A stretch of 64,000 nt of DNA from Dehalococcoidia bacterium (GTDB lineage Bacteria; Chloroflexota; Dehalococcoidia; Plut-88900): the NCBI GenBank assembly GCA_965197585.1, contig OZ240215.1, positions 320,001 to 384,000 on the forward strand, given 5' to 3'. Below the pieces are notes generated by a model. The model was not told where the DNA came from, made no database searches, and saw only the letters and a list, made by a program, of their open reading frames with translations. Positions 5,367 to 63,654 of this stretch are shown piece after piece (the first letter of the stretch is position 1; each line of letters begins with the position of its first letter). The position numbers were made by a program, and so were the translations under genes.

Positions 5367-5415
5367 GATGTCGTGCGGTTTCTCTGCTCTTGGTCGGACG
5401 TGGCTCAGGAACAGG

Positions 5416-42580: not shown

Positions 42581-43366
42581 CTAGGCCGCCTTCTGCTCCT
42601 GCTGTCTCTCCTTAAGCTTGCGGGCGGCACTCTTCACCAGGGGTTCCAGCTCGTCCACGGTGAGCTCCTCAAGCCCTTTGCCCGTCCGGCTCTTAGTGGC
42701 CTCCCTCACCTGCTCCTCCCCGAACCCCTGCTCGGCCCCCAGGTTGATGAGACCCGTCCTCAGGGCCTCAAGCTGGGACACGGGGGGATCTTCACCCTGG
42801 CTCTGACCAGGGCGGTTGTCCGCTACTTCTTTCACGGCAACCGCCTTTGCCGGGTCGCCGTAGAGAGCGTTCCCGAACTGGTCGCCGAAGCTCCTGAGCG
42901 CCCTCTTGAGAGCGTCAGTGACTGCTCCCTTGTATGCGGTCTCGTGGTCATCGATGGTCTCCCCGTTCACGGCGTGGAACCCCACGTCGGTGCGGGAGGG
43001 GGCGCCAGGGACGTCAACCCTGACCGTGGCGGCGTAGGCGTGGGAGGTCCTCACGTCTCCGGTCTCGGCGTTTATCATCTGGGCGTCCCGGAGGTTCACA
43101 CCACCCACCACCTCGTAGCCCCAACCCCCGTGTCCGAATATCCGGTTGGCCTGGGCGATGGCGGTGTGGCCTTCCAGGTAGGAGTAGGTGCGGTTCTTCC
43201 GGCCTGTGCGGCGTGACACAAGGGAGGGGTCGAGGGGCTGGGACAGCTCCTTGGTCACCCGTGGTGGCAGGCTGTCCCAGAGAAGGTCCAGTTCCCCGTC
43301 GCCCAATGGGGCGGCGTCGGGCCGGGCGCCGTTGTTCGTACCGTTCCTGTGCGTTCCGTTCGTCAT
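42581..43366 (-). CDS. Rad52/Rad22-family (Sak-like) ssDNA annealing protein
   Basis: YLEGH..I..AN.IFG..GW, RTDVG, K.AVTDALKRALRSFG..FGNALY. Confidence 0.9.
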   Translation of the reverse strand: MTNGTHRNGTNNGARPDAAPLGDGELDLLWDSLPPRVTKELSQPLDPSLVSRRTGRKNRTYSYLEGHTAIAQANRIFGHGGWGYEVVGGVNLRDAQMINAETGDVRTSHAYAATVRVDVPGAPSRTDVGFHAVNGETIDDHETAYKGAVTDALKRALRSFGDQFGNALYGDPAKAVAVKEVADNRPGQSQGEDPPVSQLEALRTGLINLGAEQGFGEEQVREATKSRTGKGLEELTVDELEPLVKSAARKLKERQQEQKAA

Positions 43367-43441
43367 GTTGTGTCTCCTTTGCAGTGCTCATCTAGGTTGT
43401 TCCAATGGACCGGGGCGGGCCAACGATTGGTCCGTAAGCGA

Positions 43442-43470
43442 CGCCTGTACCGGTGTAATCGGTACAGGCG
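43442..43470. repeat. 11-bp perfect inverted repeat followed by a G-rich purine tract
   Basis: CGCCTGTACCG-N7-CGGTACAGGCG; GGAAAGGGG-type units at ~43538-43600. Confidence 0.6.
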
Positions 43471-43646
43471 CCGGCGTGGAGCGGGCATAGGTCTTTCCGT
43501 GCAGGGCGCGCATGGGCGCGGACCGACAGGGAGGTGAGGGGAAAGAGCTATGGAAAGGGGCGGGGGGGGTTGGAAAAGGGGAATTTAGGAAAGGGGGAGT
43601 GGGAGAGGGCCGGGGCTTTAGCGCAGTGCGGGGCAGGGGTGGGCCC

Positions 43647-44711
43647 CTACCGGGCAGCTTGTGCCGCCTTCTCAAGCAAGCGCAGGAACAGGTCCCTTCC
43701 GGTGGCAAGGGAAGCAAGCTCGGCCACGTCGTCCATGCCCCTGGGCAAGACTACGGCGGCGGCCCTGGAGCCCAGCAAGTACGCAAGGCGGGCCGTTGCC
43801 TCCCTGCCCGCATCGTCGGCGTCGAAGGCGAGGAAGACCTGGGGGCAGCCCATGAGTGCCCCGGCGACCCGTTCCAGGCCCCGTGTGCCCAGGGCGGCAC
43901 AGGCGGGGATGCCCCAGTGGGCAAGGACAAGCCAGTCGACAAGACCCTCGGTGAGGACGACCCACCGGGGAGCCCGTCCCAGTCTTCCCAGGCCGAGCAC
44001 CGGCTTGGGGCCGGGCGGCGCCTGGAACCGGGGTACGGCGCCTGGTTCGAGAGCCCTTCCTCCAAGCCAGCGGACAAGTCCGTCGCCCGTATCGGGTACG
44101 ACGATCATGCCTGCGAACCGCTCGGTGTTCCTGCCCAGGAACAGGCCCGAGTCCCGCAGGCTCTCCTCTCCGAAACCTGCAAGCTCAAGGTGGCGGCGAA
44201 GCCCGCCGCCCGGGGCGTAGCCGACGCCAAGCCGCAGGGCTTCGTGCAGGCCGATGCCCCTGAACGCAAGGTATCCCCGCCCCTCGGGGTGACGCATAAG
44301 CTCCCGGGTGTAGAACCGGGCCGCCGCCGTCAGCAGGCCCGGGTCCCGGGGTGGGAGTTGGAGTTGCCGGGAGCTCCCGGCCCCAGGGCTCCGTGTGGGT
44401 CGCTTGGCGGCGGAAGGGTTGGCGGGGTGAGGGGCGCCGTCCAGCCGCCGTATCGCCTCGGGCAGGCTCAGGCCCTCGACCCTCTGCACGAAGTCCAGGA
44501 CGTCTCCCCCGGCGCCGCAGCCGAAGCAGTAGAACCTCTCCGAGTCGCCGTACACAGTGAAGCTGCCCTCGCCCTCCTCGTGGAAGGGACAGACGCCCTG
44601 TCGAACCCGGCCCCTGCCCCGGAGCCTCACTCCCGACTCCTCCACGACGACGACCAGCGAGTACCGGGCCTTGAGAGCCGGGATGTCCACGGGAGCAGTG
44701 GCTAGGACCAT
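43647..44711 (-). CDS. DnaG-like primase (CHC2 zinc finger + Toprim)
   Basis: CPFHEE..SF...FYCFGCGAGGD, LTEGLVD, AFDADDAG. Confidence 0.9.
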   Translation of the reverse strand: MVLATAPVDIPALKARYSLVVVVEESGVRLRGRGRVRQGVCPFHEEGEGSFTVYGDSERFYCFGCGAGGDVLDFVQRVEGLSLPEAIRRLDGAPHPANPSAAKRPTRSPGAGSSRQLQLPPRDPGLLTAAARFYTRELMRHPEGRGYLAFRGIGLHEALRLGVGYAPGGGLRRHLELAGFGEESLRDSGLFLGRNTERFAGMIVVPDTGDGLVRWLGGRALEPGAVPRFQAPPGPKPVLGLGRLGRAPRWVVLTEGLVDWLVLAHWGIPACAALGTRGLERVAGALMGCPQVFLAFDADDAGREATARLAYLLGSRAAAVVLPRGMDDVAELASLATGRDLFLRLLEKAAQAAR

Positions 44712-45175
44712 GACCCGCCTCCCTTCCCCAGATTTCTGAGGCCCCGGAGGCTGCCCCTGGAGACCACCTTGCCGGGGAGCCAGCGCATCCCAATGACAGC
44801 CACCACTTCTAGTATGGCGTTCTCCCGGGAGACCAGGGCCGCAGCCCGGCCTGCGCCGGGGCTGTAGACCAGGACCCCCTTCTTCCCGAACCGGCGCCGC
44901 ACCAGGTCCACCCACTCGGAGTAAGCCCAGCAGGCGTCCCTCACGGGAGCGTTGGGGGTATCCACCTCGGACATCACGGACAGGGCCCCGTCCAGGTCCG
45001 CGGCCTTCCTCAACCTCCGAGCATCGTGGACGCTCTTCGCCACCGTCGGCGCCGGCACAGCGCTCTCTTCTTCCCGCACCCCGAACAGGGCCTCGATCAC
45101 CCTGTCCACCAGCTCTTCCAGGCTGTGCCGGGTACCCACTGCCCCACCGTTCATCGTTATCGCCTGCGTTGTCAT
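44702..45175 (-). CDS. hypothetical protein
   Basis: AAAGGAG RBS; coupled to the primase gene. Confidence 0.7.
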   Translation of the reverse strand: MTTQAITMNGGAVGTRHSLEELVDRVIEALFGVREEESAVPAPTVAKSVHDARRLRKAADLDGALSVMSEVDTPNAPVRDACWAYSEWVDLVRRRFGKKGVLVYSPGAGRAAALVSRENAILEVVAVIGMRWLPGKVVSRGSLRGLRNLGKGGGSWS

Positions 45176-45215
45176 ATCGAACTCCTTTCCTTGTCTTGTT
45201 GGTCTTCCTTCTTCC

Positions 45216-45428
45216 TTACCTTCGGCCTATGAGCCGCAGCACCTGCCGCACCACCACGAAGCCCGAGAAGAGTCCCATCCCGTTGAGGGCGAAGACCTCC
45301 AGGCTCCAGGTGATGGCCAGCGGCGCCACGATGAGCAGTGCCAGGACCGGCCACTTGAACCTCACCAGGCACCGGCCAACCCCGAGGGCGGCGCTCATTA
45401 CCATGGAGAGCACTACGAGAACTTGCAT
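45216..45428 (-). CDS. small membrane protein
   Basis: AAGGAGG RBS; 2-3 hydrophobic segments. Confidence 0.6.
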   Translation of the reverse strand: MQVLVVLSMVMSAALGVGRCLVRFKWPVLALLIVAPLAITWSLEVFALNGMGLFSGFVVVRQVLRLIGRR

Positions 45429-46006
45429 GTGAACCTCCTTTGCTTTTGTTCGCACCGGCATCCTCGATGCGAGACTCGACCTGACTACCGAATGGAAATT
45501 GACGCGGCTTCTCCCCGGACCGGATGCAGGCATTGGGGGGGAGATGGGTAGTTACTGGTATCCCTGAGAAGGCAACTTCATCCAGGGATTTGGGGCAGTT
45601 GGGAACAGGACCGGTGCTTCAGAGACCTGCGTCCTGGCAACTTCCGATGGAGTTGGGCGTCACGAACCAGCCGGGGCATGGGGAGCACCTCGGCCAGGGG
45701 TTCCGGCTTACGAAACGGACCCGGAGGAGCAGCGCTCGACTCCTGGACCGTCTCCCGCAGCGGATGGCGGTTGTTCCCCATGGGTGGCCGTTCGGAGAGC
45801 AGGGCTCGATCCTATGCGGCCTGGCCCGGGTCGGGGAACTCACCCTCCAGGTTTCTAGGGCGGGAAACTCTGGGAAAAGCCTGACATCACCTTCAGTATC
45901 TTCGAGCAGGTGGGCGAATGGAATACCCTCAAAGACCCAATCGGGCCCCGGCGCCCGGATCACTGCCCCCTGTTGTCCTCCGGTTGACCCGGACCGGGGA
46001 CAGCTT

Positions 46007-46810
46007 CTAGCTCCGCCACAGCCCCAGGGTCAGCACCCGGCGCAGCCACCGCCTCAGCAGGGCCCTGTTCCGCTCCACCCGCACACGGTTCAGCCGCTCC
46101 ATTCTGTCCTCGACCTGTCGCCGCCTGTCGAACTCGTCCCAGGGATAGGTGCGGGGAGGAAGGGTGAGCTCGTGCCTGCCGATCAGCTCGAGCTCCAGCT
46201 CAAGCCGCCGTATCCGGGCCTCGGTCCCGGCCACCCCCTTCCTTCCGGCCCGCACCTCATCCATTGCCTTCCTCCACCCGGCAACCAGCGGCGCCGCATC
46301 GCCGTAGACATGCTCCTCTCCGGGCTCGGGCTCCGGGGTCACGAGGTCGGGGTAATCCTTCCTCCTGGGCCGGGGCGATGCCTCTCGGGACACGGTGTCG
46401 GCGCCCCCACCGGCCTCCAGCTTTGCCAGTCTCCGTTCCGTCTGCCTTACCTCCCCAGCCTGCTTCTTCCCCAGGGCCTCGATGGCCGCTTCCAACTCTT
46501 CCAAAGCGCCTCCCAGCCTCTCGCCCAACTCTCCTACGAGCCTCTCCAGGGACTCCAGCCGTTCACCTTGCCGGCCCACTTCCGACTGGTCCCTGTTCGA
46601 CAGGTGCTGCTCAAGGGCATTGGCCAGCCGCGGCGTAAGCTCACCTGTGGTCTTGCACCTCCAGACGGTCTTGCGGTCGATGCCCAGTTCCGCAGCTGTC
46701 TTCACCTGGCCCCACTCCTCGAGGAGGTCGTGGAGTAGGGCCGTCAACCGGAGGTCTTGGAGACTCTCCAGGCTGGGAGTCACTCCCATCAATTCATCTT
46801 GGCTGTTCAT
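46007..46810 (-). CDS. HTH + coiled-coil protein, first gene of the leading region
   Basis: GQVKTAAELGIDRKTVWR HTH followed by heptad repeats. Confidence 0.7.
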   Translation of the reverse strand: MNSQDELMGVTPSLESLQDLRLTALLHDLLEEWGQVKTAAELGIDRKTVWRCKTTGELTPRLANALEQHLSNRDQSEVGRQGERLESLERLVGELGERLGGALEELEAAIEALGKKQAGEVRQTERRLAKLEAGGGADTVSREASPRPRRKDYPDLVTPEPEPGEEHVYGDAAPLVAGWRKAMDEVRAGRKGVAGTEARIRRLELELELIGRHELTLPPRTYPWDEFDRRRQVEDRMERLNRVRVERNRALLRRWLRRVLTLGLWRS

Positions 46811-46829
46811 CGCTTGCACCTTTCCTCGC

Positions 46830-46924
46830 TGTTCCTTTTGCCCCATTTCGTGACTGGCCGTGGAACACTGCCCCGGGAACCGGAATGTTCCTTTTGCCCC
46901 ATCTCGTAGCTGGCCTTGCCCCAT
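46830..46924. repeat. iteron-like 30-bp direct repeats
   Basis: TGTTCCTTTTGCCCCATTTCGTGACTGGCC (46830) vs TGTTCCTTTTGCCCCATCTCGTAGCTGGCC (46886), 27/30; partial third copy TTGCCCCAT at 46916. Confidence 0.8.
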
Positions 46925-47090
46925 GGCGCCTGAACCTGCTGTGGAACCCAGATGCTGCCCCCCGTTGTCCTGTAGGGGGCTCTTGCCGTGATTCCAGCTA
47001 TAGATCCACGACCCGCTTCCACCTGTATACGAACAACTTTCCCTGTACACGCCCATAACACCACATCCGGCTTCCCAAAATGAACGCCCC

Positions 47091-47120
47091 ATAAGGGGGG
47101 GTGAGCACACCCCCCCTTAT
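47091..47120. promoter_or_regulatory. 13-bp perfect inverted repeat, candidate oriT/operator
   Basis: ATAAGGGGGGGTG-AGCA-CACCCCCCCTTAT at the divergence point between the leading and transfer regions. Confidence 0.45.
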
Positions 47121-47199
47121 ACGGCATTACGGATCGCCCTCCTCTTCTCCAGACTTTTTGCCAGGCAAGAAAACCGGTCCACAGCGAGGAGACCAAGAC

Positions 47200-47793
47200 G
47201 TGTTACCGCAATCGAGATTCCGTTTCGCCAGGCGCTTACTGCTGCCTGCCGTCACCATGCTCATGGCGACCCTCGTTGCGGTATCCGCCCTTGCCCCCGC
47301 CCTGGCCCAGGATTCGGGCCTAACCCTGGTCAACTCCGACCGGGACCTGGTCGAACGGAAGAAGGACGGGCGGTTCATAGCCCGCCCCGTGTTCAGCCGG
47401 GAGCTGGACTCCCTCTACTACGCCGTCCGCGATGCGGACAACGGCGACTGGTTGACCCTGATGTACCGGGTGCAGGGGGGCGAGAAGAAGCTCAAGGACG
47501 GCTGGGAGTATTCCTGGGAGTACCCGGCCCTGTCCGAGCAGCCCGACCTGGACCCCGGGAAGGCCTACCTGCTGGTTATCGGCGTCCCCGCCGACGCCCA
47601 GGGCGGCCCCTACGTCTTCCACGCCCTTGTACCCGTGCACCAGCCCAGCGGGATTTTCGACCGGATCCTGGCGGCCCTGAACCCCGCCAGGTGGGCAAAG
47701 GCCTTCGCCCGCTGGGTGATAGAGGGCGTTCACGGCGGCCTGTGCGGGGTCGTTGAGCGGGCCACGAGAACCGAGATCGACAACTGCGACTAA
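47200..47793 (+). CDS. secreted hypothetical protein heading the transfer operon
   Basis: GAGGAG RBS + GTG; signal peptide ending ALA. Confidence 0.7.
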   Translation: MLPQSRFRFARRLLLPAVTMLMATLVAVSALAPALAQDSGLTLVNSDRDLVERKKDGRFIARPVFSRELDSLYYAVRDADNGDWLTLMYRVQGGEKKLKDGWEYSWEYPALSEQPDLDPGKAYLLVIGVPADAQGGPYVFHALVPVHQPSGIFDRILAALNPARWAKAFARWVIEGVHGGLCGVVERATRTEIDNCD

Positions 47794-47805
47794 GGACTCT
47801 ATGCC

Positions 47806-48792
47806 ATGAACGACATCCTCACCGGAACTCCCCCCGAGCTGACCTACCTGCACCCCATGGTGCGGGAGGCCTGGATGGTTGTATGGGGCGTCGCATCGGG
47901 GGCTTTGATCGTCATCCTGGGCTGGATGGGCCTCAGCCTCATCATGCAGAACCTGCTGGGACATACCAGCACCGGGTGGCGGGAGGCGGTCCCCCGCCTG
48001 GCCCTGGGCCTCGTGGCCGCCGCCACCTCCTACTGGTGGTGCGCCCTGGTCATCGACGTGGCGCACGTAGTCTCCAAGTACATCGCCGCGGAACTGGACG
48101 TCACCCCCGGCGACCTGCTGAGGGCGCCCCTGGAGACGTTCCTCAGGACCGTGGAGGCGGGGAGCGTGGGTATGGCCCAGCTGGTGGCCCTCCTCTACGT
48201 GGTCTACGGGTTCTTCGTCCTCTACGTCCTGGTGCAGCTGGTATTGAGGCTGGCCCTGATCGACATCCTGCTGGCCCTGGCCCCCATAGCGTTGGGCCTC
48301 TGGATACTGCCCCATACGGCGGGCTGGGGGAGGCACTGGCTGAGGCTCTTCCTGACCACGGTGTTCCAGCAGTCGATACAGCTCATAGCCCTGGCATTGG
48401 GGTTCGGGTTCCTGAGAGAGTACGCCGCCATAGAGGCCTTCGAGCCGGCCCAGGACCTGGTGTGGAAGCTGCTGCTGTCGGTGGCCTTCGTCTACATGGC
48501 GACGAGAGTGCCCTCGATGCTGGGCAATGCTGGCACCTTCGACTCCTGGGTCAGCACCCTCTACTTCGGCCTCAACCTGCCGGGGACCCTGATGCGCTCT
48601 GCCAAGACCGTAGGGCTGCTCTCCGGGGGAATGGGTGGGGGGCCTGCAGGAGCAGCAGTGGGGGCGGTGGCTGCCACGGCGGCGGGGACCGGAGCGGGTG
48701 CGGCCTCGGGCCTGAGATCGGCGGCGGAAGGTGCAACCGCCGGTGGAGATGCGACCGGGGCCGGGCCTGCCCCGAGGAGCAGCGGCGAGTGA
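47806..48792 (+). CDS. VirB6/TrbL-like polytopic conjugation protein
   Basis: Multiple TMs, R...I..L.ALAP.AL....LP.T..W...W, Gly/Ala-rich tail. Confidence 0.8.
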   Translation: MNDILTGTPPELTYLHPMVREAWMVVWGVASGALIVILGWMGLSLIMQNLLGHTSTGWREAVPRLALGLVAAATSYWWCALVIDVAHVVSKYIAAELDVTPGDLLRAPLETFLRTVEAGSVGMAQLVALLYVVYGFFVLYVLVQLVLRLALIDILLALAPIALGLWILPHTAGWGRHWLRLFLTTVFQQSIQLIALALGFGFLREYAAIEAFEPAQDLVWKLLLSVAFVYMATRVPSMLGNAGTFDSWVSTLYFGLNLPGTLMRSAKTVGLLSGGMGGGPAGAAVGAVAATAAGTGAGAASGLRSAAEGATAGGDATGAGPAPRSSGE

Positions 48793-48957
48793 GCCCACTT
48801 ATTTCGATAGACGGGACTTCAACAGATAGACGAAACGAACAGATAGACGAGAAGGCACGAGGAGGTCAAGAGATGTGCAGCTAGGCAAGCGAGAACGACG
48901 TGACCCCTGGACCAGGGATAAAGACTCCCAAACAGCAACGGAAACAGGAGAAAGCGA

Positions 48958-49251
48958 ATGGAACAGCTGACCCAGACCATATCGAACATCGTGGGGATCA
49001 TGATGGGGGTGGTGGGCGCGGTGGGCGTTGCCTACTTCGTCTATGGGGCCTTCCTGTACATGACGGCAGGCGGCGGGCCCCAGCAGATGGACCGGGGGAA
49101 GAGCGCCATGCTCACCGCCCTGGCGGGCGTGGTGCTGGCGCTGCTGGCCTACGTGGTCGTTGAGGTGGTGACCGGTGCAATTGTAAACCCGGGCGTCGAG
49201 GTGGATATCCCCGAGCCCGGCACCCCCACGCCAACACCAGACGGGGGATAG
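48958..49251 (+). CDS. VirB2/TrbC-like pilin
   Basis: Two TMs linked by YMTAGG.PQQM.RGK. Confidence 0.8.
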   Translation: MEQLTQTISNIVGIMMGVVGAVGVAYFVYGAFLYMTAGGGPQQMDRGKSAMLTALAGVVLALLAYVVVEVVTGAIVNPGVEVDIPEPGTPTPTPDGG

Positions 49252-49276
49252 GCAAAGCAGAAGTGGAGGAAGAGTC

Positions 49277-50953
49277 ATGAGAGAACACGAGGTGCCGACC
49301 CACCTGCAGGCCGAGGACCGGGTGCTGCTGTGGTTCACCTTCCAACAGCTGGTGGCCATCACCGCCGTGGCCGCGCTGTCCTACGGAGCGTACCGCTACG
49401 CTCCCGTGGGCCCCTCCGAGGTGAGGATAGTCCTGGCCGTCCTCCTGGGGCTGGCGGGAATGGCCATGATCGTGGGAAGGGTGGGAGGCCGGCGGCTGCC
49501 CCTGGTGACCGCCGACCTCCTGCGGTTCCGGCTGGGTCCCCGGCGCTACGCCGGACCCCCTGCCCAGCTGGTGCGCGCCGAAGCGCCGACGCCGGTCAGG
49601 AGTGCGCCGAGCCCTCTAACCCTATTGGTCAGGAAGGCCAGACGGATCATCATGCGCCGCCGCAACGGTAGGATGCCCCTCCGTCCCCGCGGCCGTTCCG
49701 GCAAGGGCCGCCGCCGGCGCCGGGGGAAGCGCAAGTACCCAAAGCAGGACAGGAAGAAGACCGGGAGAAGCAGGGGCCGGAGGAACCTGCTGGCCGTCCT
49801 GGCCGTCGCCCTAACGGCGGCGGCCGGGGCGGTGTCCCCCGTTGCCCTGGCTGACGACCATCATCCCGAGGAGATCGGCTTCGAACTGAGGGAGCCCGTC
49901 CCCGGAAGAAGGATATACGTCGAGAGATTGCATGTGTCGGGCGACTCCGCCGGGGTAACCGTCAGGGCCGCCGCTGACATCGACCTGCAGGTGAGAGGCT
50001 ACGGCGGACCCGAGGGCCGGATATCCGTGTTCCGGGCGACGGCCAGGCTGCAGGGGGGAGAGGCCAGGAGCTACATATTCCCACTCTCCGGTGACTCGCC
50101 CTCCCTCACCCTCTCCTGGCGGGACGGGCTGGGGCAGGCGGGCGCTCTCAGCCTGAAGGGAGACCAGATCCCGCACCCTCTGCCCTCCGTCGAGGGAGAG
50201 CTGTGCGACATTGAGCTCGATTACCTGCTTTGGACGCCTGGACGGGTGGATGGAGCCATAGACTCCATCTGCGAGGACTCCGTCGAAGAACCGGTGTCCC
50301 TTACGACGGTGTCCGGGCATGAGAGCGTGACGGTGACGGCGTTGATGGATGCGGACGTCACCGCAGTTGCCGGGACTGTAATAGTCACCGTCGGCGGGGC
50401 CCAGGGACCGGTCCCCTTCGTTCCGAACGGGTTCACGGCCTTCCGGGTCAATGTGCCCGCTGGCGAGGGGGTCCACAAGGTCACCTTGCAAGCCGCCCTG
50501 GAAGGGGCCCTGCGGATCGACCTTCCTCCCCTGGTTGCCCTGACCCACCACCCCAAGAGGGACGAGGAGATAACCACGAGAGTCAAGCTGTACCGTCCCG
50601 GAACCAGCAGGACGGTCTCCGAGACGGTGACTCTCTTTCACCCCGACGGGACAACCACCCGGCACGTCATCTCGGCCACCCTGTCCGTACCCGGCACAAC
50701 GGTGGCAAAGGATGTGACCGTCACCGTGGAACATGAGGAGCACGTGAGGGCTGAGGTCATGGAACGGGGGCCCCTGGCCCGAACGAGGATAGAGGCTCTG
50801 GACATGGCGTCGAGCATCGGCGCCGACGACAACTTCGAGCTCCTCACCCTGCCCGAGCCGGAGCCCACCCCCGAGCCCGCCGAGCAGACCCCGGTGGACA
50901 CCGATGAGCTGAGGCGGCTGTTCGAGTTGCTGGGCTGGAGTTGGCCGTGGTGA
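49277..50953 (+). CDS. PrgI-like membrane protein fused to a large extracellular domain
   Basis: HEVPTHL..EDR....FTFQQL + 2 TMs; Arg-rich linker; third hydrophobic segment; beta-rich C-terminus. Confidence 0.7.
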   Translation: MREHEVPTHLQAEDRVLLWFTFQQLVAITAVAALSYGAYRYAPVGPSEVRIVLAVLLGLAGMAMIVGRVGGRRLPLVTADLLRFRLGPRRYAGPPAQLVRAEAPTPVRSAPSPLTLLVRKARRIIMRRRNGRMPLRPRGRSGKGRRRRRGKRKYPKQDRKKTGRSRGRRNLLAVLAVALTAAAGAVSPVALADDHHPEEIGFELREPVPGRRIYVERLHVSGDSAGVTVRAAADIDLQVRGYGGPEGRISVFRATARLQGGEARSYIFPLSGDSPSLTLSWRDGLGQAGALSLKGDQIPHPLPSVEGELCDIELDYLLWTPGRVDGAIDSICEDSVEEPVSLTTVSGHESVTVTALMDADVTAVAGTVIVTVGGAQGPVPFVPNGFTAFRVNVPAGEGVHKVTLQAALEGALRIDLPPLVALTHHPKRDEEITTRVKLYRPGTSRTVSETVTLFHPDGTTTRHVISATLSVPGTTVAKDVTVTVEHEEHVRAEVMERGPLARTRIEALDMASSIGADDNFELLTLPEPEPTPEPAEQTPVDTDELRRLFELLGWSWPW

Positions 50954-51264
50954 TACGGGTTCTGTGGGTGGTCTTAATGGCGGGTGCGGGGTTTGCCTCC
51001 TTGGGCGCGGGGACGGACATCGAGAAGGGGAACATGCTTCTCAAGTTCGTCGAGGTGGTGGACGCTATGGCCTATGCCGCTGCAGGACTCTGCCTATTTG
51101 CCGTCGTCTGGGCCGGGTTCCTGCTCATGGCCGAGGGGGCTGAGGAGCGGAGCTCGGGCAGGGCCAGGAGCGCGGTGGTCCTGGCTATCACGGGCCTGGT
51201 CCTCACCCTCTCGGCCAAAGGGATAGCCCTGGCCCTGCTGAAGGTCACCCCAACGCTCCCGTAG
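50941..51264 (+). CDS. second pilin-like membrane protein
   Basis: Hydrophobic hairpin with WAGFLLM....EE...RAR.AV. Confidence 0.65.
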   Translation: MAVVIRVLWVVLMAGAGFASLGAGTDIEKGNMLLKFVEVVDAMAYAAAGLCLFAVVWAGFLLMAEGAEERSSGRARSAVVLAITGLVLTLSAKGIALALLKVTPTLP

Positions 51265-51285
51265 CGGCAAGAAAAGGACAACGAT

Positions 51286-53541
51286 TTGAAAACCGTATTT
51301 GAAAAACTCAGCCGGATGATTCTCAGGCCCGGGAAAACGGGGGCCACTGCGGCCCCGAAGAAGAATGCCGCCCCGCCCAAGCCGCCCGTCCCCTTGCCAT
51401 CGTTCTACATGCTGTCCCACCTGGAGGAGGATGGTCCCGTGAGGCTCGACGGGGTCAAGCTGGGCATCTGCGAGGTGATGGGCCTGGAACTGGACGAGCC
51501 CCGGCTCGGCTCCTTCGCGGGGGCCCTGAACGCCCTGGACTTCCCGGTGCAGCTTCTAGTAAGGCAGCACCCGCCGGTGCTGGACCGGCTGAGGGATGCC
51601 CTAAAGGAAGCCCAGCCTGAAGACCTGCCGCCGAAGACCGAACAAGCCGCAAGTTCCCTCAGGGGCCTGCTCAGGGAACTCGAGACCCGGGAGGGGGTGC
51701 TGGACCGGCGGTTCTACGTTGTATGCAAACACGATAGGGCCGACGACTTGGCATCCCTACTCTCGCGGGTCGGCCTCTTCGTCCAGCCTCTCAGTGGCCG
51801 GACCCTCAGGATGTTCATCCTCGCATGCGCACTTGGCGGCTCTCCCAGGGACATGGACGAGACCGAGCAGGTGAGTGTGGAGATCAATCGCCGGGAGCTT
51901 CGAATCGGCCCCGGGCTCACCCGCTCCCTCCACCTGGGCCGCTGGCCCCGCACCCTTGTTCCCGGGTTCCTGCAGGCCCTCATGAACTCGGGCATCCCCA
52001 TGGACTTGTCCGTCCACCTTGCCCCAATCGCAGCCGACCAGGCGGCCCGCACACTGGAGTGGCAGAAGGTGCGGTTCGAGTCGGCCCGATCCATGTCCTT
52101 CCGCAAGGGCCGCAGCCTCTCCCCGGAGGCGGAGATAGCCCTGGAGGACGTCACCCGCCTCAGGGACGACGTTCAGCGGGGCCGGGAGCGTCTCTTCCAC
52201 TCTTCCCTTTCCCTGACTCTTCATGCAGACGATCACAAGAGCTTGAAGGAGATGACCCAGAGGACCAGGGCCCACTTTGCCGCCACGTTGGGCAAGCTGG
52301 ACGTCCTCCCCTTCCGCCAGAGGGAGGGGCTCCTGTCGACCCTGCCCCTAAACCTCAACTCCGTTGCGCTCTGGAGGACCCTGGACACCTCCTCCCTGGC
52401 CCGGCTGTTTCCCTTCTCTCCCCCCGACATGGACACCCGCAGCGGCACCCTCTATGGCCTGGACCTCAGGGCCCGGGCGCCCATCGTCTACGACCCCTGG
52501 GACGGCACCCACCTCAACGCCAACACCGCTGTCCTGGCCCGCTCGGGCAGCGGAAAGTCCTTCGCCACCAAGCTGGGCGTGTTGCGGGGTATATGCCGCG
52601 GAATAACGGCCTACGTCATCGACCCCGAGGGAGAGTATGCCGACATGGCCAGGGCCGCGGGGGGCAGGGTGCTGTCGCCGGGAGTACCGGGCCAGGGCAT
52701 GAACCCCTTCGTCATGGACCGGAGGGACTCGGAGGAGTTGCTCCAGCGCATCGGCAGCCTGAGGAGGCTGATAGAGGTGATGGTGGGGGAGAAGCTCGGT
52801 GCTGAGCGGCGCGCGGACCTGGACCACGCCCTGGCCGGCTACTACGCCGAACCCCGGGAGCGCACCGGGTTCCGGGACTTCTACGGCTACCTGCAGAGCG
52901 GGGAGAACGACGACTCGGAACTCGATTCGGGGCAGGCCCTGGCCAGGCTGCTGAGGCCCTTCGCCACGGGTAGCCTCCGCCACCTCCTGTCAGATGAGGG
53001 GGACGACCTGCTCCACAACGAGGCTCTCGTTACCGTGTTCGACCTGAGGCTCCTTGAGCCCGAGCTCCGGCCCGCCGCCGCCATGGTCTGCACCGAGACG
53101 GTGTGGGCCTCCGCCGCCCGGGACCCCAAGCCGAGGCTGCTGGTTGTGGACGAGGTGTGGTCGATCATGCAGCACCCCGAGGGGGCTGCGTTCATGGTCT
53201 CTATGGCCAAGAGGGCCCGGAAGCACCGGCTGGGACTCCAGTTCATAACCCAGGACGTCCAGGACCTGCTCAGCGAGGACACCTCCCGCACCATCACCGG
53301 CCACTCGGGAAGGGCCCTGCTGCAGAACGCCGCCTTCAAGCTGCTGCTCCAGCAGGACGCCGCGGCCATATCCACGGTGGGGGAGGCCTTCGACCTGCCC
53401 CAGGACCTTCAGAAGTGGCTTCTCTCCTGCCCCAGGGGCGACGGGCTGCTCCTGGCCAGGGGAAACCGGTTCCCGGTGCGCATCGAGGCCACGCCGGAGG
53501 AGGCGGAGATCATCGAGTGGAGGCCGGGAGCCCACGCCTAG
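51286..53541 (+). CDS. virB4: VirB4-like conjugative ATPase
   Basis: ARSGSGKS, VIDPEGEY, VVDEVW, KRARKH, ITQ. Confidence 0.9.
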   Translation: MKTVFEKLSRMILRPGKTGATAAPKKNAAPPKPPVPLPSFYMLSHLEEDGPVRLDGVKLGICEVMGLELDEPRLGSFAGALNALDFPVQLLVRQHPPVLDRLRDALKEAQPEDLPPKTEQAASSLRGLLRELETREGVLDRRFYVVCKHDRADDLASLLSRVGLFVQPLSGRTLRMFILACALGGSPRDMDETEQVSVEINRRELRIGPGLTRSLHLGRWPRTLVPGFLQALMNSGIPMDLSVHLAPIAADQAARTLEWQKVRFESARSMSFRKGRSLSPEAEIALEDVTRLRDDVQRGRERLFHSSLSLTLHADDHKSLKEMTQRTRAHFAATLGKLDVLPFRQREGLLSTLPLNLNSVALWRTLDTSSLARLFPFSPPDMDTRSGTLYGLDLRARAPIVYDPWDGTHLNANTAVLARSGSGKSFATKLGVLRGICRGITAYVIDPEGEYADMARAAGGRVLSPGVPGQGMNPFVMDRRDSEELLQRIGSLRRLIEVMVGEKLGAERRADLDHALAGYYAEPRERTGFRDFYGYLQSGENDDSELDSGQALARLLRPFATGSLRHLLSDEGDDLLHNEALVTVFDLRLLEPELRPAAAMVCTETVWASAARDPKPRLLVVDEVWSIMQHPEGAAFMVSMAKRARKHRLGLQFITQDVQDLLSEDTSRTITGHSGRALLQNAAFKLLLQQDAAAISTVGEAFDLPQDLQKWLLSCPRGDGLLLARGNRFPVRIEATPEEAEIIEWRPGAHA

Positions 53542-53619
53542 ATAGAGGTTGTTTAGACACGAACCAATAGATAGAGGCCGTTTATATACGAATCACTGTA
53601 GAAGAGAAGAAGGGAAACC

Positions 53620-56235
53620 GTGATGAGATTGAACCCGTTGAAAATACTGTCAGGCAGGTCCCATTCAAGGACCCCGGTGCTGCTGGCGGTGACGCCGCCC
53701 CGAACGGGGGAGCGAACCCTGCTGGGTGTGGAGAACCTGCTCTCCTCCATCGCCGTCCCCGAGCCGTTCTCACTGGAGCTGGCCGGAGACGCCTACGGCG
53801 TGACCCTGATGGCCCGCTGCCTGGACGGCCAGGTGGTCAGGGCTCAAGTAGCCGCCCACTACCCCCAGGCCACGATACGCGAGGTGCCTCCCGACGAGGA
53901 CCCCCTGCGACTGAGGGAGGGTGAGCAGGCCTGGGGCATGACACTGAGGTCATCGGGCCCCGAGTACGTGCCGCTCAGGGTGTTCCGGGACGACGACCTG
54001 CTCGACCCCGGCTCCGACCCCCTCATCGCCCTCCTGGGCGCCCTGTCCAACCTGGACGGCGACGACCGGATCGTGGCCAGGTTGATGCTGCGCTCCCTGG
54101 GCCCCGAGTGGTCCCGGCACCACATGGAGATGGCCCACGGCAGGCTGGCCCCTGAGCCCAGGGCTGCTTCCCATGCTCAGCAGGGCGGGCCTACGCAGAC
54201 CAACGGCAAGGCCATGGCCGCCCTGGGCATCGGCGCTCTTGCCGCCTTCCAGGGCTACACATGGGTGCAGGCCGGGGAGACGTGGAAGACCGTGCTCCTG
54301 GGCTTGGGAATCGTCCTAGCCCTGGCCGCGGGCGGCTGGGCCTGGCACCGTTGGAAGGCTTCCTGGTCCCGCGTCCACGACCCCCTGCTCATCAGGGAGA
54401 AAGTGTCCCGAATCGCATTCGACGCCGAGGTGCAGCTCGTCGCCGTCATGTCGGAGGCGGACCCGGAGGAGGCGAAGGGACGGGCGAGGAAGCTCCTGGA
54501 GCCCGTCGCCGCCGCCTACCGGCACTACGACAACCCCGCCGGAGCCCGCCTCAGGGCCGGCAAGGTCAGACCCGTACTTCCCGACCCGTCGACGATGCAC
54601 CCTTCCGGCCCCGGCCTGTTCGGCAGCCGCAGCGTCATCGGGGTCCGGGAGGCCGCAGCCCTGTGGCATCCCCCGGGGCCCCGAGACGACACCCCCCTGG
54701 TGGAGCGCTCCGGCGCCAGCGTCCTCATGCCCTCGGCCAGGGGAGTCACCGGAGGCGCCCTGGTGGGGGACACCACGGCGGGCAGGCCCAGGGAGATCCG
54801 CTTCCCGGGTGACCTGCTCCGCCGCCACCACCTCTACGTCGCCCGGACCAGAATGGGCAAGTCCACCCTCATGCAGCACATCGTCGCCCACAAGATGAGG
54901 GAGAAGGCCGGGGGAAGGGATGGCGACGCCATAGTCGTCGTAGACCCCCACGCCGACCTGGTGGCCGGCCTGCTCAACCACGTCCCCGGAGAGGTGGCGG
55001 ACAGGGTGCGGCTCATAGACCTGGCCGACCCCAGGGGAGCCCCCGGCATCAACCTGCTGGACACCCGTATCTTCGCCGACCGGGACCGCACCGCCGACTC
55101 GGTGGTCAGGGTTGCGCGGGGCCTCTGGGAGCAGTGGGGCCCCCGTATGCAGTCCATCTTGGAGCACACCGTCAAGACCCTCCACGAGGCCAACGGGCAC
55201 CCGGACACCGTGGAAGAGGAGCAGTTCACCATCCTGGACGGGCTGCGGCTCCTGTCCAACGAGCCGTTCCGCAACGCCGTCCTCGCCCGGGTCTCCGACC
55301 CCTACGTGCTGGAGTGGTGGGCCAGGGACTTCGGCAACTGGCACGCCCAGTACAAGGCCGAGGCCCTCGCCCCTGTCCAGACCCGGCTCTCCTACTACGC
55401 CTCCTCCAAGAGGGCACGGGCCATCCTCGGCCAGTCCCGATCTACCCTGGACATCCGGCGCACCATCCTCGACGGGGGCATCCTGCTGGTATCCACCGCC
55501 CAGGGGAGCGTCGGCAGGGACGTGGCCGCCCTGGTGGGCGCATCGATGCTGAACCTGGTGGACGCCGTAATCAGGGAGCAGGGAAGCCTTACTCCTGAGA
55601 GACGGCGTGGCGCCCTCGTGGTGGTGGACGAGATGCAGTCCATGCCCGGCGTGGACTACGAGTCGATGCTGTCGGAGCTGGGCAAGTTCGGGGCTTCCTT
55701 CATCCTGGCCACCCAGAGCCTGGCAAAGCTCGCAGACCTGTCCCCCACCATGCGGGACACCGTCCTGGCCAACGTCGGCTGCCTCGCCGTCTTCCAGGTG
55801 GCCGGCAACGACGCCCGCCAGCTGGTGTGGGAGCTTGGCCGGGACCGTGTGAGCGAGGAGGACATCGTCTCCCTGCCCGTCCACCACTGCTACGTCAGGG
55901 CCACCGTGGGCAAGGAGCGGATGCCCGCGTTCTCCATGATGGTGCGCAAGCCGGAGCCGGGAGACCCCGGTGGAGCCGCCCGCATCCGCTCCGATGCATC
56001 CTCCTACGTCATGACGGCGGAGGAGATCGCCTCGCTGCAGGCCGAGGGCCGGGCGCGGGTGGAGAAGTTCCAGGCCGCCGTCAAGAAGGGGGAGAAGGGG
56101 GCGGCCTCCCCGCCGGACCCTAAGGGGGACGCCCCGAAGGACGCCAACAGGGGCAATCGCCGCAGCAAGCACGACCAGGTGGACACCAAACCTGGGACCG
56201 CCGACAACGCTCCGGGTAAGGAGTCCGCGCAATGA
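53620..56235 (+). CDS. virD4: VirD4/TraD-like type IV coupling protein
   Basis: HLYVARTRMGKS, VDPHADL, VVDEMQ, SELGKFG..LATQS; internal TM pair. Confidence 0.85.
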   Translation: MMRLNPLKILSGRSHSRTPVLLAVTPPRTGERTLLGVENLLSSIAVPEPFSLELAGDAYGVTLMARCLDGQVVRAQVAAHYPQATIREVPPDEDPLRLREGEQAWGMTLRSSGPEYVPLRVFRDDDLLDPGSDPLIALLGALSNLDGDDRIVARLMLRSLGPEWSRHHMEMAHGRLAPEPRAASHAQQGGPTQTNGKAMAALGIGALAAFQGYTWVQAGETWKTVLLGLGIVLALAAGGWAWHRWKASWSRVHDPLLIREKVSRIAFDAEVQLVAVMSEADPEEAKGRARKLLEPVAAAYRHYDNPAGARLRAGKVRPVLPDPSTMHPSGPGLFGSRSVIGVREAAALWHPPGPRDDTPLVERSGASVLMPSARGVTGGALVGDTTAGRPREIRFPGDLLRRHHLYVARTRMGKSTLMQHIVAHKMREKAGGRDGDAIVVVDPHADLVAGLLNHVPGEVADRVRLIDLADPRGAPGINLLDTRIFADRDRTADSVVRVARGLWEQWGPRMQSILEHTVKTLHEANGHPDTVEEEQFTILDGLRLLSNEPFRNAVLARVSDPYVLEWWARDFGNWHAQYKAEALAPVQTRLSYYASSKRARAILGQSRSTLDIRRTILDGGILLVSTAQGSVGRDVAALVGASMLNLVDAVIREQGSLTPERRRGALVVVDEMQSMPGVDYESMLSELGKFGASFILATQSLAKLADLSPTMRDTVLANVGCLAVFQVAGNDARQLVWELGRDRVSEEDIVSLPVHHCYVRATVGKERMPAFSMMVRKPEPGDPGGAARIRSDASSYVMTAEEIASLQAEGRARVEKFQAAVKKGEKGAASPPDPKGDAPKDANRGNRRSKHDQVDTKPGTADNAPGKESAQ

Positions 56236-57893
56236 CGCCCGCAGGGTGCACCGGAGAGCTGCTGCGCCGCCTGGCCGCCATGCCCTTCCTGGACCGGCTG
56301 GAGATGGTGGCCGTCTCCGGCTGGTCCAGGGGGGCCGTATACCCCGCCGTCGAGTCCCTGGAGCGCAACAGGCTGGTGGCCTCCGTACCCCACGCATCGG
56401 ACCTCGTTCCGCCAGCCCGAAGGTTCCACCTCACGGTTCCCGGCCTGTACCGGCTTGCGAGGGAGGAAGGCATGACCGTGGACGGGCTCCTTGCCGCCTA
56501 TCCCCTCTCCGCGCAGTGGCAGCGGCTGCTGATGGAGCGCCTGGACGCCGTGGCCGTCATCTACCGGCTCGTCTGTATGGTCTCCGACGTCGCCCACCCC
56601 ATACGCTTCCGCTGGTTCAGGGCCCTGCCCATGGACGCGGCGGTGGGACTTCCCGACGGGCGGGTGGTCTCCATAGTCAGGCAGGGCCCCACCTCCGACA
56701 GGACGGCCTTCGCCAAGCGCCTCTGGCGGCTGGGGAAGGGTCCCCGGCCTAGCGCCGTCCTCATCCTGGCGCCGGACGGGGTCCGTCTCAGGCATGCCCG
56801 CAGGCTGATGATGGGATCTCCCTCCCTTGCGTTCCTAGCCCCGGAATCCACCGCGGTCTCCGGCACTGCCGTATCCCGGGTGTGGCGCACCCCCTCGGGG
56901 TCCTCCCTCCTGGACCTGCGCACCGCCCTCTCGCTCACGCAGCGGCGGGGAGAATGGCCCCTGGAAGGGTCTCCGGCGCGGGCCCACCTCCCGGAGAACA
57001 TCGTACTGGATGCCCCGGGGGAATCGCTGCCTGACTGGACGCTGCCCGCAGTGCTCAAGTCCGCCGAGAAGCGGGCCCTGGACCTGCTTTCCGACTGGCC
57101 CTGGGTCTCGCCCACTCACATGGGGATACTGCTGGGGGTGAGGCGGTCCATGCTCTCCCGGGTCCTGGTACGGCTCTGCGGACTGGGACTGGTCACGGGT
57201 TCCGACGTTGTCGGGAGCAGTCTCCTGGCGGTCACGGACCGGGGCCTGGCGCTGCTGGCCCGCCGGGACCGTTCCGCCGTGGGTGCTGCCAGGCGGCGGT
57301 GGAGCCCGGCTCTCCAAGACCCGGACGGCCCCATCCAGTGGCGCAACGTCACCGGCAGGAGAAGCCGCCAGCTGCTGAGGAACCTGGAGCACACCTCGGC
57401 GGTCCACTGGTTCATGGCGGTGCTGTCCAGGCAGGCCCGCTCCAGGTCGAGGGAGGTGGTCCAGCTCGACCCCCCCAGGAGGGCATCGAGATACTTCCGT
57501 CACGGAGACAAGCTGCGCTCCATACACCCCGACGCCTTCGGCGTCCTGCGCCGGGACGGCAAGACCTCGCCGTTCTTCCTGGAGTGGGAGCGGCGAGCTG
57601 TACGCCCGGCCACCATGGCCGACCGCATCGCACCCTACCTGCGCTACTACTCCTCCCGCCGGCCCACCGACGACCATGGGGCGCGGCCCGCCGTGCTGGT
57701 GGTCTTCGAATCGGACCTGGCGGCCACTCACTTCCTGCGCATTGCATCTCAGGAGATGAATCGGGTGGGGGTGGACATCCCACTGTATGTCTCCCACAAG
57801 AGCCTGTTGGAGAGGGTGGGTCCCCTGGGGAAGGCCTGGAGAGGGGTGGACGGGACTGGGCCGGGCTACGCTTTTCAGATGAGTTCTACCTAG
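56232..57893 (+). CDS. Replic_Relax-family relaxase, apparently with a tandem domain duplication
   Basis: C-terminal half LEHT..V..F, HPDAFG, FFLEWER, I.PY.RYY; N-terminal half has a similar layout; coupled to virD4. Confidence 0.75.
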   Translation: MTPAGCTGELLRRLAAMPFLDRLEMVAVSGWSRGAVYPAVESLERNRLVASVPHASDLVPPARRFHLTVPGLYRLAREEGMTVDGLLAAYPLSAQWQRLLMERLDAVAVIYRLVCMVSDVAHPIRFRWFRALPMDAAVGLPDGRVVSIVRQGPTSDRTAFAKRLWRLGKGPRPSAVLILAPDGVRLRHARRLMMGSPSLAFLAPESTAVSGTAVSRVWRTPSGSSLLDLRTALSLTQRRGEWPLEGSPARAHLPENIVLDAPGESLPDWTLPAVLKSAEKRALDLLSDWPWVSPTHMGILLGVRRSMLSRVLVRLCGLGLVTGSDVVGSSLLAVTDRGLALLARRDRSAVGAARRRWSPALQDPDGPIQWRNVTGRRSRQLLRNLEHTSAVHWFMAVLSRQARSRSREVVQLDPPRRASRYFRHGDKLRSIHPDAFGVLRRDGKTSPFFLEWERRAVRPATMADRIAPYLRYYSSRRPTDDHGARPAVLVVFESDLAATHFLRIASQEMNRVGVDIPLYVSHKSLLERVGPLGKAWRGVDGTGPGYAFQMSST

Positions 57894-61985: not shown

Positions 61986-63635
61986 GTGGAGATTGAACCG
62001 ATGAAAGTACACGATGAACTGATACCGGCAGCCCTGTACGCCAGGGTCTCCAGCGAGCGGCAGGATGTAGACCTATCTGTGTCTGCTCAGTTGCGAGCCC
62101 TTCGAGACTACGCCCAAAAGAACGGATACCTAGTAGCCAGGGAGTACGTCGACGAGGCTGAGAGTGGGCGATTTGCAAACAGACCTCATTTCCGCCTGAT
62201 GCTGGATGAAGCTAGCAAGTCTGACGCCCCGTTTCGAGAAATCCTAGTATGGAAATTCTCCCGCTTCACCAGAAAACGGGAGCACGCAGTGGCTTTTAAG
62301 TCCATGCTCAGGAGACGGGGCATAAGGGTAGTTTCCATTACCGAGCACGCCGACGACACCCCCACCGGCAAGCTCATGGAGGCAATTATCGAGAGCGTAG
62401 ACGAGTTCTACTCTGAGAACTTGGCCCAGGAGGTCACCCGGGGCATGCGGGAGGCCGCCTCCCGAGGTTTTTGGGTGGCTCCAAACATACCCTACGGCTA
62501 CCGCAGAGCATATATACAAGACGGAGGGAAAAAGCGACCAAGGCTTGAGCCCGTCCCACCCGCCGATGGCGTCATACGGCGTATATTCGAAATGGCACTT
62601 AAGGGTAACAGCACCCTGGACATCACAAGGACCTTGAACGAGGAAGGGATCTCCAGTCCAAATGGCAAAAAGTGGCTAAAAACGGGCGTCCATAGAATAC
62701 TCACGAACGAGACTTATACTGGCACTCTGATATGGGGTGTCAACTCCAAGGACAAAGCGCCGCCAGTCCGCGTTGAGGGTGCGTTCCCTGCCATAGTCTC
62801 CGAGGCGGGGTTCCGAAGTGTAGGAGAGATTCTCCGAGCTAGATCGCCTTCGAAGGTTCATCCCAGGCGTGCGGCAAGTCGCTATCTGCTAAGCGGACTT
62901 ACCAAGTGTGACGACTGTAATCGCGCTCTCATCGGCCAAGAGGCCAAGAGTGGAGAATATGCCTATTACGTATGCCACTCTCTGATTAAGCAAGGCAAGG
63001 GAACCTGTAGCACTCCCAGACTTAACGCCAAGAGTTTCGAGAAGCTCATCGTTGGGCAAATTCGTGACCACATTCTCACCGAGAGCAACATCCGGGATTT
63101 AGTGAGGCTAGTAGATGAGGAAATGGACGGTGTTGCCCGGGAACAGCGTCAGAAGCTGCAGACAATCGAGCAGGAGATTGTCGAAGTGCGCCGTAGGCTG
63201 GACAGAATATGGCACGCGCTTGAAACCACTGATTTGGACATCTCTGATGCGTCGTCGCGCATCAAAGGGCACCGGGAGCGAGAGGAACAATTGGAAGTTG
63301 CTGCAAAAGAGGCGAGGGCTGCTTTGTTGGAGCGAAGGACTTTTCTGGACAGGGTGGATACGATCACCGAGTTCGCCAAGGACATGAGCGACTTCCTGAA
63401 AACCAGTAGCCTAACCGAGTGCAAGGCGTTCGTAAGGACCTTCGTCAAGGAGATTAAGGTGAATGCAAGACAAGCGACTGTCGCCTATACGATACCTACT
63501 CCAGACGATAGTCGTCCTGACGAAGAAATCGTGACAGCAATAGGGCTTGGTGATCCAGTTCTGTCTACAGTCCTCTATGGTAGCGCATACGGGATTCGAA
63601 CCCGTGGTCTCCGCCTTGAGAGGGCGGTGTCCTAG
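61986..63635 (+). CDS. large serine recombinase (integrase)
   Basis: ALYARVSS catalytic motif, FSRFTR, PYGY, Zn-ribbon LLSGL.KC..C...YYVC...C, coiled coil; last 19 codons are antisense tRNA. Confidence 0.95.
   Translation: MEIEPMKVHDELIPAALYARVSSERQDVDLSVSAQLRALRDYAQKNGYLVAREYVDEAESGRFANRPHFRLMLDEASKSDAPFREILVWKFSRFTRKREHAVAFKSMLRRRGIRVVSITEHADDTPTGKLMEAIIESVDEFYSENLAQEVTRGMREAASRGFWVAPNIPYGYRRAYIQDGGKKRPRLEPVPPADGVIRRIFEMALKGNSTLDITRTLNEEGISSPNGKKWLKTGVHRILTNETYTGTLIWGVNSKDKAPPVRVEGAFPAIVSEAGFRSVGEILRARSPSKVHPRRAASRYLLSGLTKCDDCNRALIGQEAKSGEYAYYVCHSLIKQGKGTCSTPRLNAKSFEKLIVGQIRDHILTESNIRDLVRLVDEEMDGVAREQRQKLQTIEQEIVEVRRRLDRIWHALETTDLDISDASSRIKGHREREEQLEVAAKEARAALLERRTFLDRVDTITEFAKDMSDFLKTSSLTECKAFVRTFVKEIKVNARQATVAYTIPTPDDSRPDEEIVTAIGLGDPVLSTVLYGSAYGIRTRGLRLERAVS
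63558..63601 (+). other. hybrid attachment site (element arm + tRNA arm)
   Basis: GTTCTGTCTACAGTCCTCTATGGT-AG-CGCATACGGGATTCGAAC; left arm homologous to 4073 and 9609 and supplies the tRNA ACCA end. Confidence 0.8.
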
Positions 63636-63654
63636 GCCGCTAGACGAATGCGCC
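63578..63654 (-). tRNA. tRNA-Glu (anticodon CUC)
   Basis: GGCGCAT acceptor / ATGCGCT-A-CCA, anticodon arm CCGCC-CTCTCAA-GGCGG, T-arm ACGGG-TTCGAAT-CCCGT. Confidence 0.97.

Follow-up and report, generated by a model that had tools for sequence, protein, structure and literature searches.

We analysed a stretch of 64,000 nucleotides from a Dehalococcoidia bacterium (contig OZ240215.1, positions 320,001 to 384,000; hereafter the window), near the right-hand end of which an integrase gene, int1, runs into a tRNA gene. Positions are those of the window unless prefixed by G000, which denotes source-genome contig coordinates and in which the window spans G000 320,001-384,000. The features at the junction are the following:

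61986..63635, plus strand: int1, an open reading frame (ORF) of 549 amino acids in its integrated form, the last 17 codons being antisense tRNA.
63578..63654, minus strand: tRNA-Glu(CUC), called by ARAGORN, the sole tRNA called in the window.
63555..63581, plus strand: P half-site inside the int1 ORF, codons PVLSTVLYG, the last nine element-encoded codons.
63582-63583, no strand assigned: AG, the central (predicted crossover) dinucleotide of the attachment site attR, about which the P and P' arms are symmetrical.

The int1 product matches the Pfam families PF00239 Resolvase (7e-32), PF07508 Recombinase (3e-20) and PF13408 Zn_ribbon_recom (6e-12), a domain set that classes it as a large serine recombinase (serine integrase) predicted to catalyse recombination of attP with attB. 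Its ORF enters the 3' end of tRNA-Glu(CUC) in antisense: the boundary at the predicted crossover reads ..VLSTVLYG and then SAYGIRTRGLRLERAVS, with the stop codon at 63633-35, and the integrated form ends in ...VLSTVLYGSAYGIRTRGLRLERAVS. The overlap of 61986..63635 with 63578..63654 thus bears out the original prediction that the integrase gene crosses its own att site and ends in antisense tRNA. Because the ORF spans that site, the integrated element must encode a different C-terminus from the excised one.

Inside the P half-site, GTTC at 63558-61 lies 20 nt from the centre, and the terminal TGGT is the A73-CCA of the tRNA. The AG at 63582-83 corresponds to tRNA positions 72/71. The T-arm and acceptor 3' strand of tRNA-Glu(CUC) make up the opposing B' half-site. 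Its GAAC is at a distance of 14 nt from the centre as against 20 nt in the element arms, a 6-bp shift towards the centre that had been proposed. This half-site anatomy, including the 6-bp shift, agrees with the 25-bp half-site and 5-bp zinc-domain shift described for serine integrases by Rutherford et al. 2013 (PMC3783163). The P and P' arms mirror each other as inverted repeats around an AG or GG dinucleotide, and on the letters alone the predicted sites have the attributes of serine-integrase att sites, namely a short pseudo-palindromic attP, a matching 2-bp centre and, in attB, a zinc-domain motif at a shorter distance from that centre. The tRNA itself (63582-63654) carries a G1:U72 wobble pair atop its acceptor stem, which is also found in 8/8 same-genus relatives. 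All eight of these relatives, each with a syntenic locus, have an empty site with the same TGGTAGCGC, reading ...TGGTAGCGCAT..., and so both the AG centre and the G1:U72 pair are native and no product of integration.

Serine integrases require identical central dinucleotides in both sites. A mirror-image search with the int1 P arm, allowing 8 mismatches, returned mostly noise, yet it turned up an AG-centred arm at G000 299,364-299,430, outside the window. This arm reads tggt AG accaagcgGTACTGTAGACAGAACTTTT... and encodes the tail GRPSGTVDRTFQWVVPL, which stops at the same codon position as the tails of three arms inside the window that are described below; the arm is identical to the mirrored int1 P arm at 20 of 27 positions, 15 of them consecutive. 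The flank to the left of the relatives' empty tRNA-Glu site aligns to G000 297,809-298,986, approximately 380 bp before the AG arm, a spacing comparable to the 300-570 bp of the corresponding flank in the relatives. We take this arm as the predicted true partner of int1, that is, attL at G000 299,368, which is 84.2 kb upstream and 20.6 kb outside the window. A partner with a matching centre that lies beside the native flank gives a predicted island of 84,214 bp. The window up to the attR crossover (63581-83) then lies inside the island, and the tRNA body with 346 nt beyond it is native chromosome. The core common to attR and attL is TGGTAG only, with no 20-bp direct repeat. The junction between int1 and the tRNA is also present in public assembled contigs of three runs from three studies, with 0, 4 and 11 differences, and these contigs all end inside the tRNA, at 63605.

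The same pairing holds for two paralogues of int1 elsewhere in the genome:

G000 2,665,786-2,667,594: int2, 602 amino acids, 70% identical to int1.
G000 299,456-301,162, minus strand: int3, 65% identical to int1.

For int1 the two centres are AG and AG, with arms identical at 20/27 positions and 84,214 bp apart; for int2 they are AC and AC (19/27, 82,995 bp), and this match of centres backs the pairing rule; for int3 they are GG and GG (19/27, 24,523 bp). The int2 ORF reads across the entire antisense tRNA-Glu(UUC) and onward to its 602 amino acids, which shows how arbitrary the integrated-form tails are.

Whether the tail of the excised form is coding was assessed on the P' arms. A stop at codon 17 is present in 11/11 strong P' arms of this genome and in 8 of 12 arms from seven of the eight same-genus genomes, where one arm has CAG and three are diverged; the stops comprise TAA, TAG or TGA. 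Codon analysis was carried out on the 19 arms with the stop, the dropping of the 4/23 without it biasing the stop column only. Mean entropy is 0.62 bits from the centre to +25 and 0.66 from +26 to +47, and it rises to 1.67 in the 21 nt after the stop. In codons 13-16 the entropy at the second position is 0.74/0/0.83/0 against 1.17/1.75/1.76/1.68 at the third, and these codons retain E/V, V/I, a variable residue and I/L/V/M. T..RT.F..W and a hydrophobic end are kept in both of two divergent tail classes, TELRTFRWEVSI and TVDRTVFEMWLGAL, which are separated by in-frame indels. As conservation runs to +47, past the 25-bp half-site, the outer part of the P' tail looks like a peptide under selection. 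The kept stop position, the third-position variation and the end of conservation at the stop accord with the coding selection on element-side arms that the original prediction had put forward. A conserved ORF on the minus strand was considered as the cause of the P' arm conservation and rejected, since the minus-strand frames differ among the copies.

The switch of tails extends beyond this genome. In the best 120 of 4,913 homologues with E <= 1e-30, among 8,000 scored, 88 have tRNA-type tails, in which RT lies two codons closer to the centre (85 by rule and three with the anchor off by one). Those of the 85 are 10-86 amino acids long and of 41 kinds. Short element-type P' tails of the form ..T..RT.FEMWLGAL, ending in a stop, occur in 8/120, and 16/120 are unclassified or anchorless, three of these being of tRNA type by eye. 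The proposal of bimodal C-termini is therefore upheld as to the two types, but the element-type tails found are of the FEMW kind and not of the TELRTF kind that it had named. Eighty related loci, all from Dehalococcoidia or Chloroflexota metagenome-assembled genomes, were also surveyed. An antisense tRNA lies at the integrase 3' end in 50 of them, representing 15 tRNA/anticodon kinds. Where the anchor held (it failed or slipped in 32/80 loci) the P arm ends in TGGT, except that tRNA-Gln loci have TGGC. The central dinucleotide reads antisense to tRNA positions 71/72 and is GG at tRNAs for Met, Ile, Val, Leu, Ala and Lys, AC at those for Arg and TG at those for Gln. These surveys point to the tail swap as a family trait of Dehalococcoidia recombinases.

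Within this family, the genomes with loci L014, L024, L045, L053 and L055 (G061-G065) hold 3 to 34 copies of the recombinase. Many of the copies are paired convergently, with 3' ends that abut or overlap, one member approximately 65% and the other approximately 54% identical to int1, for example G064:C3:23297-24856(+) and 24841-26406(-). Such pairs probably explain the long read-on tails (GGPDWTKSRTEADS...), and their arrangement hints at a second class, in which the P' arm, starting GCCA, would be joined to the tRNA end.

A structural model was obtained with AlphaFold2 for the homologue P0111, which carries a natural P' tail and is 68% identical to int1 (mean pLDDT, the predicted local distance difference test, 69.2; predicted template modelling score, pTM, 0.34). 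In this homologue, helices 361-409, 414-450 and 452-468 lie between the zinc-ribbon strands and form a long coiled-coil insertion, and the last hairpin, 482-496, is confident.

Taken together, these data suggest the following mechanism. The attP core of int1 would lie within the 3' end of its own gene. Strand exchange would occur at the AG of tRNA positions 71/72, and the TGGT of the P arm would restore A73-CCA. On excision, attR would recombine with the AG-centred attL at G000 299,368, and the int1 ORF would be fused to the P' arm, which encodes RPSGTVDRTFQWVVPL and a stop. The P' tail would be a translated and selected peptide with the consensus T-x-x-R-T-F-x-W-hydrophobic-x-x-hydrophobic-stop, situated on a flexible extension past the zinc-ribbon domain. 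It may mark integrase made from the circular element and modulate its activity or stability there, and integration would replace it by an arbitrary tail dictated by the tRNA. With moderate confidence we favour this reading, in which int1 pairs with the AG-centred attL and the P' tail marks circle-made integrase.

The strongest competing explanation, somewhat unlikely in our estimate, is that the tail has no function as protein: attP would merely lie at the 3' end of a gene, the P' arm being kept as DNA, whether as an extended footprint, a terminator or another signal, with selection only for an early stop. Several observations count both for this alternative and against the peptide. In codons 5-12 none of the three positions varies, and constraint on the DNA is inseparable from coding there. 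In the P0111 model the last 29 residues (517-545), comprising the tail and the last residues encoded by the P arm, have pLDDT below 50, and the model thus gives no sign of the tail docking on the fold. The tRNA-type tails are arbitrary and highly diverse, yet the elements bearing them are common, and the enzyme thus tolerates very different ends. In 8/120 homologues the ORF reads on for 24-116 amino acids past the site, and the short tail is not universal. Also on the side of this alternative, McMurdie et al. (PMC3146451), discussing the Dehalococcoides integrase DsiB, judged a functional antisense-ssrA tail to be unlikely. A further point that weighs on the peptide reading is that the 19 arms share a common descent and had been chosen because they carry the stop. 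No excised-circle junction was found among the listed loose ends of public assembled contigs, a result that is uninformative on excision. Against a constraint on the DNA stand the conservation that continues beyond the known half-site and ends exactly at the stop, the third-position variation of codons 13-16 that keeps V/I and I/L/V/M, and the motif held in common by two divergent tail classes despite their in-frame indels.

A stronger form of the peptide reading, which we regard as distinctly unlikely, is that the T..RT.F..W peptide acts as a sensor of the integration state: only integrase encoded by the circle would carry it, and it would either be needed for integration or limit the lifetime of the enzyme. 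Still less probable is that the excised-form tail is a proteolysis tag, such that circle-made integrase is short-lived and the integrated form stable, or the reverse. The position of the tail on a C-terminal extension that the model predicts to be flexible, and its conserved hydrophobic end, would suit a degradation signal, and there is a precedent in the mycobacteriophages described by Broussard and Hatfull 2013 (PMC3694055), where an attP within a gene removes a C-terminal tag from the repressor on integration. That precedent, however, swaps the tail of a repressor and not of an integrase, and its integrase is of the tyrosine type; the tail ends seen here (..EVSI, ..VVPL and ..LGAL) are unlike the tag of this genome's transfer-messenger RNA (tmRNA), which ends in ALAA.

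The window also contains three arms related to the P' arm, which form the repeat family D10 (4093-4137, 6705-6749 and 9639-9683):

4070..4147, plus strand: copy 1, GG centre at 4097-98; its right arm is a P' arm with the tail GPGKTELRTFRCEVSI (stop TGA).
4039..4101, minus strand: copy 1 left arm in minus-strand reading, ...GPPNLTIDRTIFEMWFSLTV and stop, within the ORF 4039..4305.
6706..6759, plus strand: copy 2, GG centre at 6709-10; an orphan P' arm with the tail GPKKTELRIFRWEVLI (stop TAA).
9640..9693, plus strand: copy 3, GG centre at 9643-44; an orphan P' arm with the tail GLEGTVLRTFCWEVSL (stop TAG).
4148..9639, no strand assigned: two small integrase-less modules between the copies (Pfam scan).

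The 19-nt motif of these copies occurs three times in the window and in none of 100 shuffles. Read in the int1 frame, the tails are GGPGKTELRTFRCEVSI (TGA, 4145-47), GGPKKTELRIFRWEVLI (TAA, 6757-59) and SGLEGTVLRTFCWEVSL (TAG, 9691-93). The three different stops occupy the same codon position, and the central dinucleotide is GG in all three copies as opposed to AG at attR and the tRNA. The in-frame tails with their common stop position and the difference in centre had both been read correctly from the sequence in the original prediction. Copies 1-3 match the int1 P arm at 14, 15 and 17 of 27 positions, respectively, and because their GG centres mismatch the AG of attR, they are not expected to be partners of int1. 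The idea built on them, that they store alternative C-terminal tails and that attR recombines with any GG arm to give circles of 54-59 kb and integrase isoforms that differ in directionality or stability, strikes us as very improbable, for although the three arms lie in direct orientation with attR and are well-formed P-type half-sites with open tails and stops, their centres differ from an AG that is native to the tRNA in 8/8 relatives, a better partner with an AG centre and more similar arms stands beside the native flank 84.2 kb away, copy 1 is accounted for as the distal site of int3, and the genome contains 11 similar arms, mostly far from such integrases.

Copy 1 is understood from its left arm, which is the P' arm of int3 viewed from the opposite strand. 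The int3 ORF enters a tRNA-like sequence, with its centre GG on the plus strand at G000 299,574, and the left arm of copy 1 mirrors the int3 P arm at 19/27 positions and encodes ...GPPNLTIDRTIFEMWFSLTV, a short element-type tail as in 8/120 homologues. Since this is the excised-form tail of int3, copy 1 is the predicted far end, or distal att site, of a 24,523-bp int3 element nested in reverse orientation. Its cargo is int3, a pilin-like gene and a 2,824-amino-acid fn3 protein, and the element seems to have inserted beside a pre-existing P' arm, now the right arm of copy 1. An inversion between the int3 site and copy 1 was considered and rejected: both carry GG on the plus strand, and as direct repeats they would yield deletion and not inversion. 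Between attL and int3 (G000 299,430-299,575) lie tRNA-like fragments, GGTTCAAATCC... and then a long-arm tRNA-like sequence uncalled by ARAGORN; this second fragment is the target of int3.

For copies 2 and 3 we found no recognisable partner site. They bound modules of 2.6 kb and 2.9 kb without an integrase, one of the inter-copy modules holding a MetE-like gene and an NTP-transferase and the other an 822-amino-acid NACHT/AAA NTPase, and from this layout they are putative orphan attL-type sites that bound integrase-less modules, as in accreted island arrays. Across the genome an nhmmer search gave 11 strong and 4 weak P' arms. Three modules of nearly the same sequence lie outside the window, at G000 154,981(+), 428,738(+) and 499,743(-). 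Each comprises a sense arm that resembles a tRNA and has GTTC at 14 nt from the centre, together with an AC centre and a P' arm whose tail reads G/S-T-x-KR-x-VL-R/P-TFRW-x-V-x-I, ending in a stop. At G000 460,489-460,617(-) two P' arms stand in tandem 66 nt apart, the second centre 15 nt past the stop of the first tail.

The remainder of the window contains the conjugative core of the element:

42581..57893, no strand assigned: conjugative core, with Rad52, primase, a PrgI-like protein, type IV secretion system (T4SS) pilin, VirB4/TraG-type ATPase, coupling protein and Replic_Relax relaxase.

The conjugation matches in Pfam are P-loop_TraG/AAA_10, TrwB_AAD_bind, Replic_Relax, T4SS_pilin and, weakly, PrgI. 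A T4SS ATPase, coupling protein, relaxase and integrase together mark the window as part of a predicted integrative conjugative element, which also encodes methyltransferase and helicase genes. Of the 56 window ORFs covered by the scan, int1 alone has a Resolvase domain; on its upstream side the neighbours are a 66-amino-acid ribbon-helix-helix protein and helix-turn-helix (HTH)/IrrE-like genes. The first 20 kb of the window hold lower-GC cargo and defence-like genes. GC content is 52-59% at the cargo end (1-20000), 62-70% in the conjugation core (22000-58000) and 54-61% at the integrase end (58000-64000), and the element is in this respect a compositional mosaic. On the minus strand at 10936-20355, two HATPase_c_3 proteins, an SNF2 helicase, a ParB_N-like protein and a weak radical-SAM match form a run of defence-like or DNA-modification-like genes. 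A 1,413-amino-acid protein at 25768-30009(+) has fn3 and PPC domains and is built of internal DNA repeats (families D1-D9).

The closest published layout is that of DsiB, the ssrA-specific recombinase of Dehalococcoides islands (McMurdie et al. 2011, PMC3146451), to which we compare int1 by described layout and not by sequence. As the text of that paper has it, the 3' end of dsiB always overlaps the att site, with the stop in ssrA or the next island, the DsiB C-termini diverge, and the islands stand in tandem, 15 of them without integration modules; the authors suggested that DsiB is perhaps fully functional only if encoded by the circle. The layout and this speculation having been published in 2011, the core of the idea is already in print. 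Like DsiB, int1 encodes a serine recombinase of approximately 540 amino acids at an island edge in the same bacterial class, with variable C-termini and an ORF that overlaps the att site and stops in an RNA gene or neighbouring element (int1 and 50/80 related loci), and the nested and tandem islands here, with the int3 element and two modules that lack an integrase and are flanked by P' arms, resemble the DsiB arrays. As far as that account goes, int1 differs in its target, which is tRNA-Glu(CUC), and 15 tRNA kinds family-wide, and not tmRNA (ssrA); in sharing only TGGTAG in place of a 20-bp direct repeat; in having no small DsiA-like second recombinase beside it (one Resolvase match in the window); and in belonging to an element that bears a type IV secretion system and relaxase.

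With the phage integrases A118/LI, phiC31 and Bxb1, as portrayed in PMC3783163, int1 shares the three-domain C-terminal architecture, long helical insertion included, a pseudo-palindromic attP and, in the bacterial half-site, a zinc-domain motif set closer to the centre. Unlike them it has a shift of 6 bp rather than 5 bp, an attP inside the integrase ORF, a target that is a tRNA 3' end repaired by the P arm, and only one bacterial arm, the tRNA, that looks specific. The mycobacteriophages of clusters G, N and P (PMC3694055) likewise have attP in a coding sequence, with C-termini that differ between viral and prophage forms, but by that description int1 stands apart in swapping the recombinase's own tail and in having no ssrA-like tag, int1-type tails ending in ..VSI, ..VPL or ..GAL as against ALAA in the tmRNA tag. 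Insertion at a tRNA 3' end with restoration of the gene by the element is shared with the islands of tyrosine integrases (Islander, PMC4383910); those are described there as carrying a long tRNA-gene fragment and a direct repeat, whereas the int1 P arm supplies only A73-CCA. According to the 2015 Islander paper, serine integrases were not known to target tRNA genes. Among the papers listed by our literature searches we found no tRNA-targeting serine integrase with a swapped tail, subscription journals and supplementary files being outside the scope of the search. Within the reach of these searches, three things appear to be new: tRNA genes as targets of serine integrases, the half-site anatomy with the crossover at 71/72, and the coding signature of the tail.

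The practical outcome is a corrected map, in which an 84.2-kb island with nested elements ends at tRNA-Glu(CUC) and the three near arms are not the partner of int1. For the family, the data describe serine integrases that are predicted to target tRNA genes and to repair them with four bases. Serine integrases are prized for genome engineering owing to their directionality, and an enzyme whose C-terminus reports its integration state would, if the reading is true, be a new way to control the direction of an integrase. Should the peptide act as a sensor, a family that targets at least 15 tRNA kinds would set its directionality partly through gene structure and not only through a separate directionality factor.

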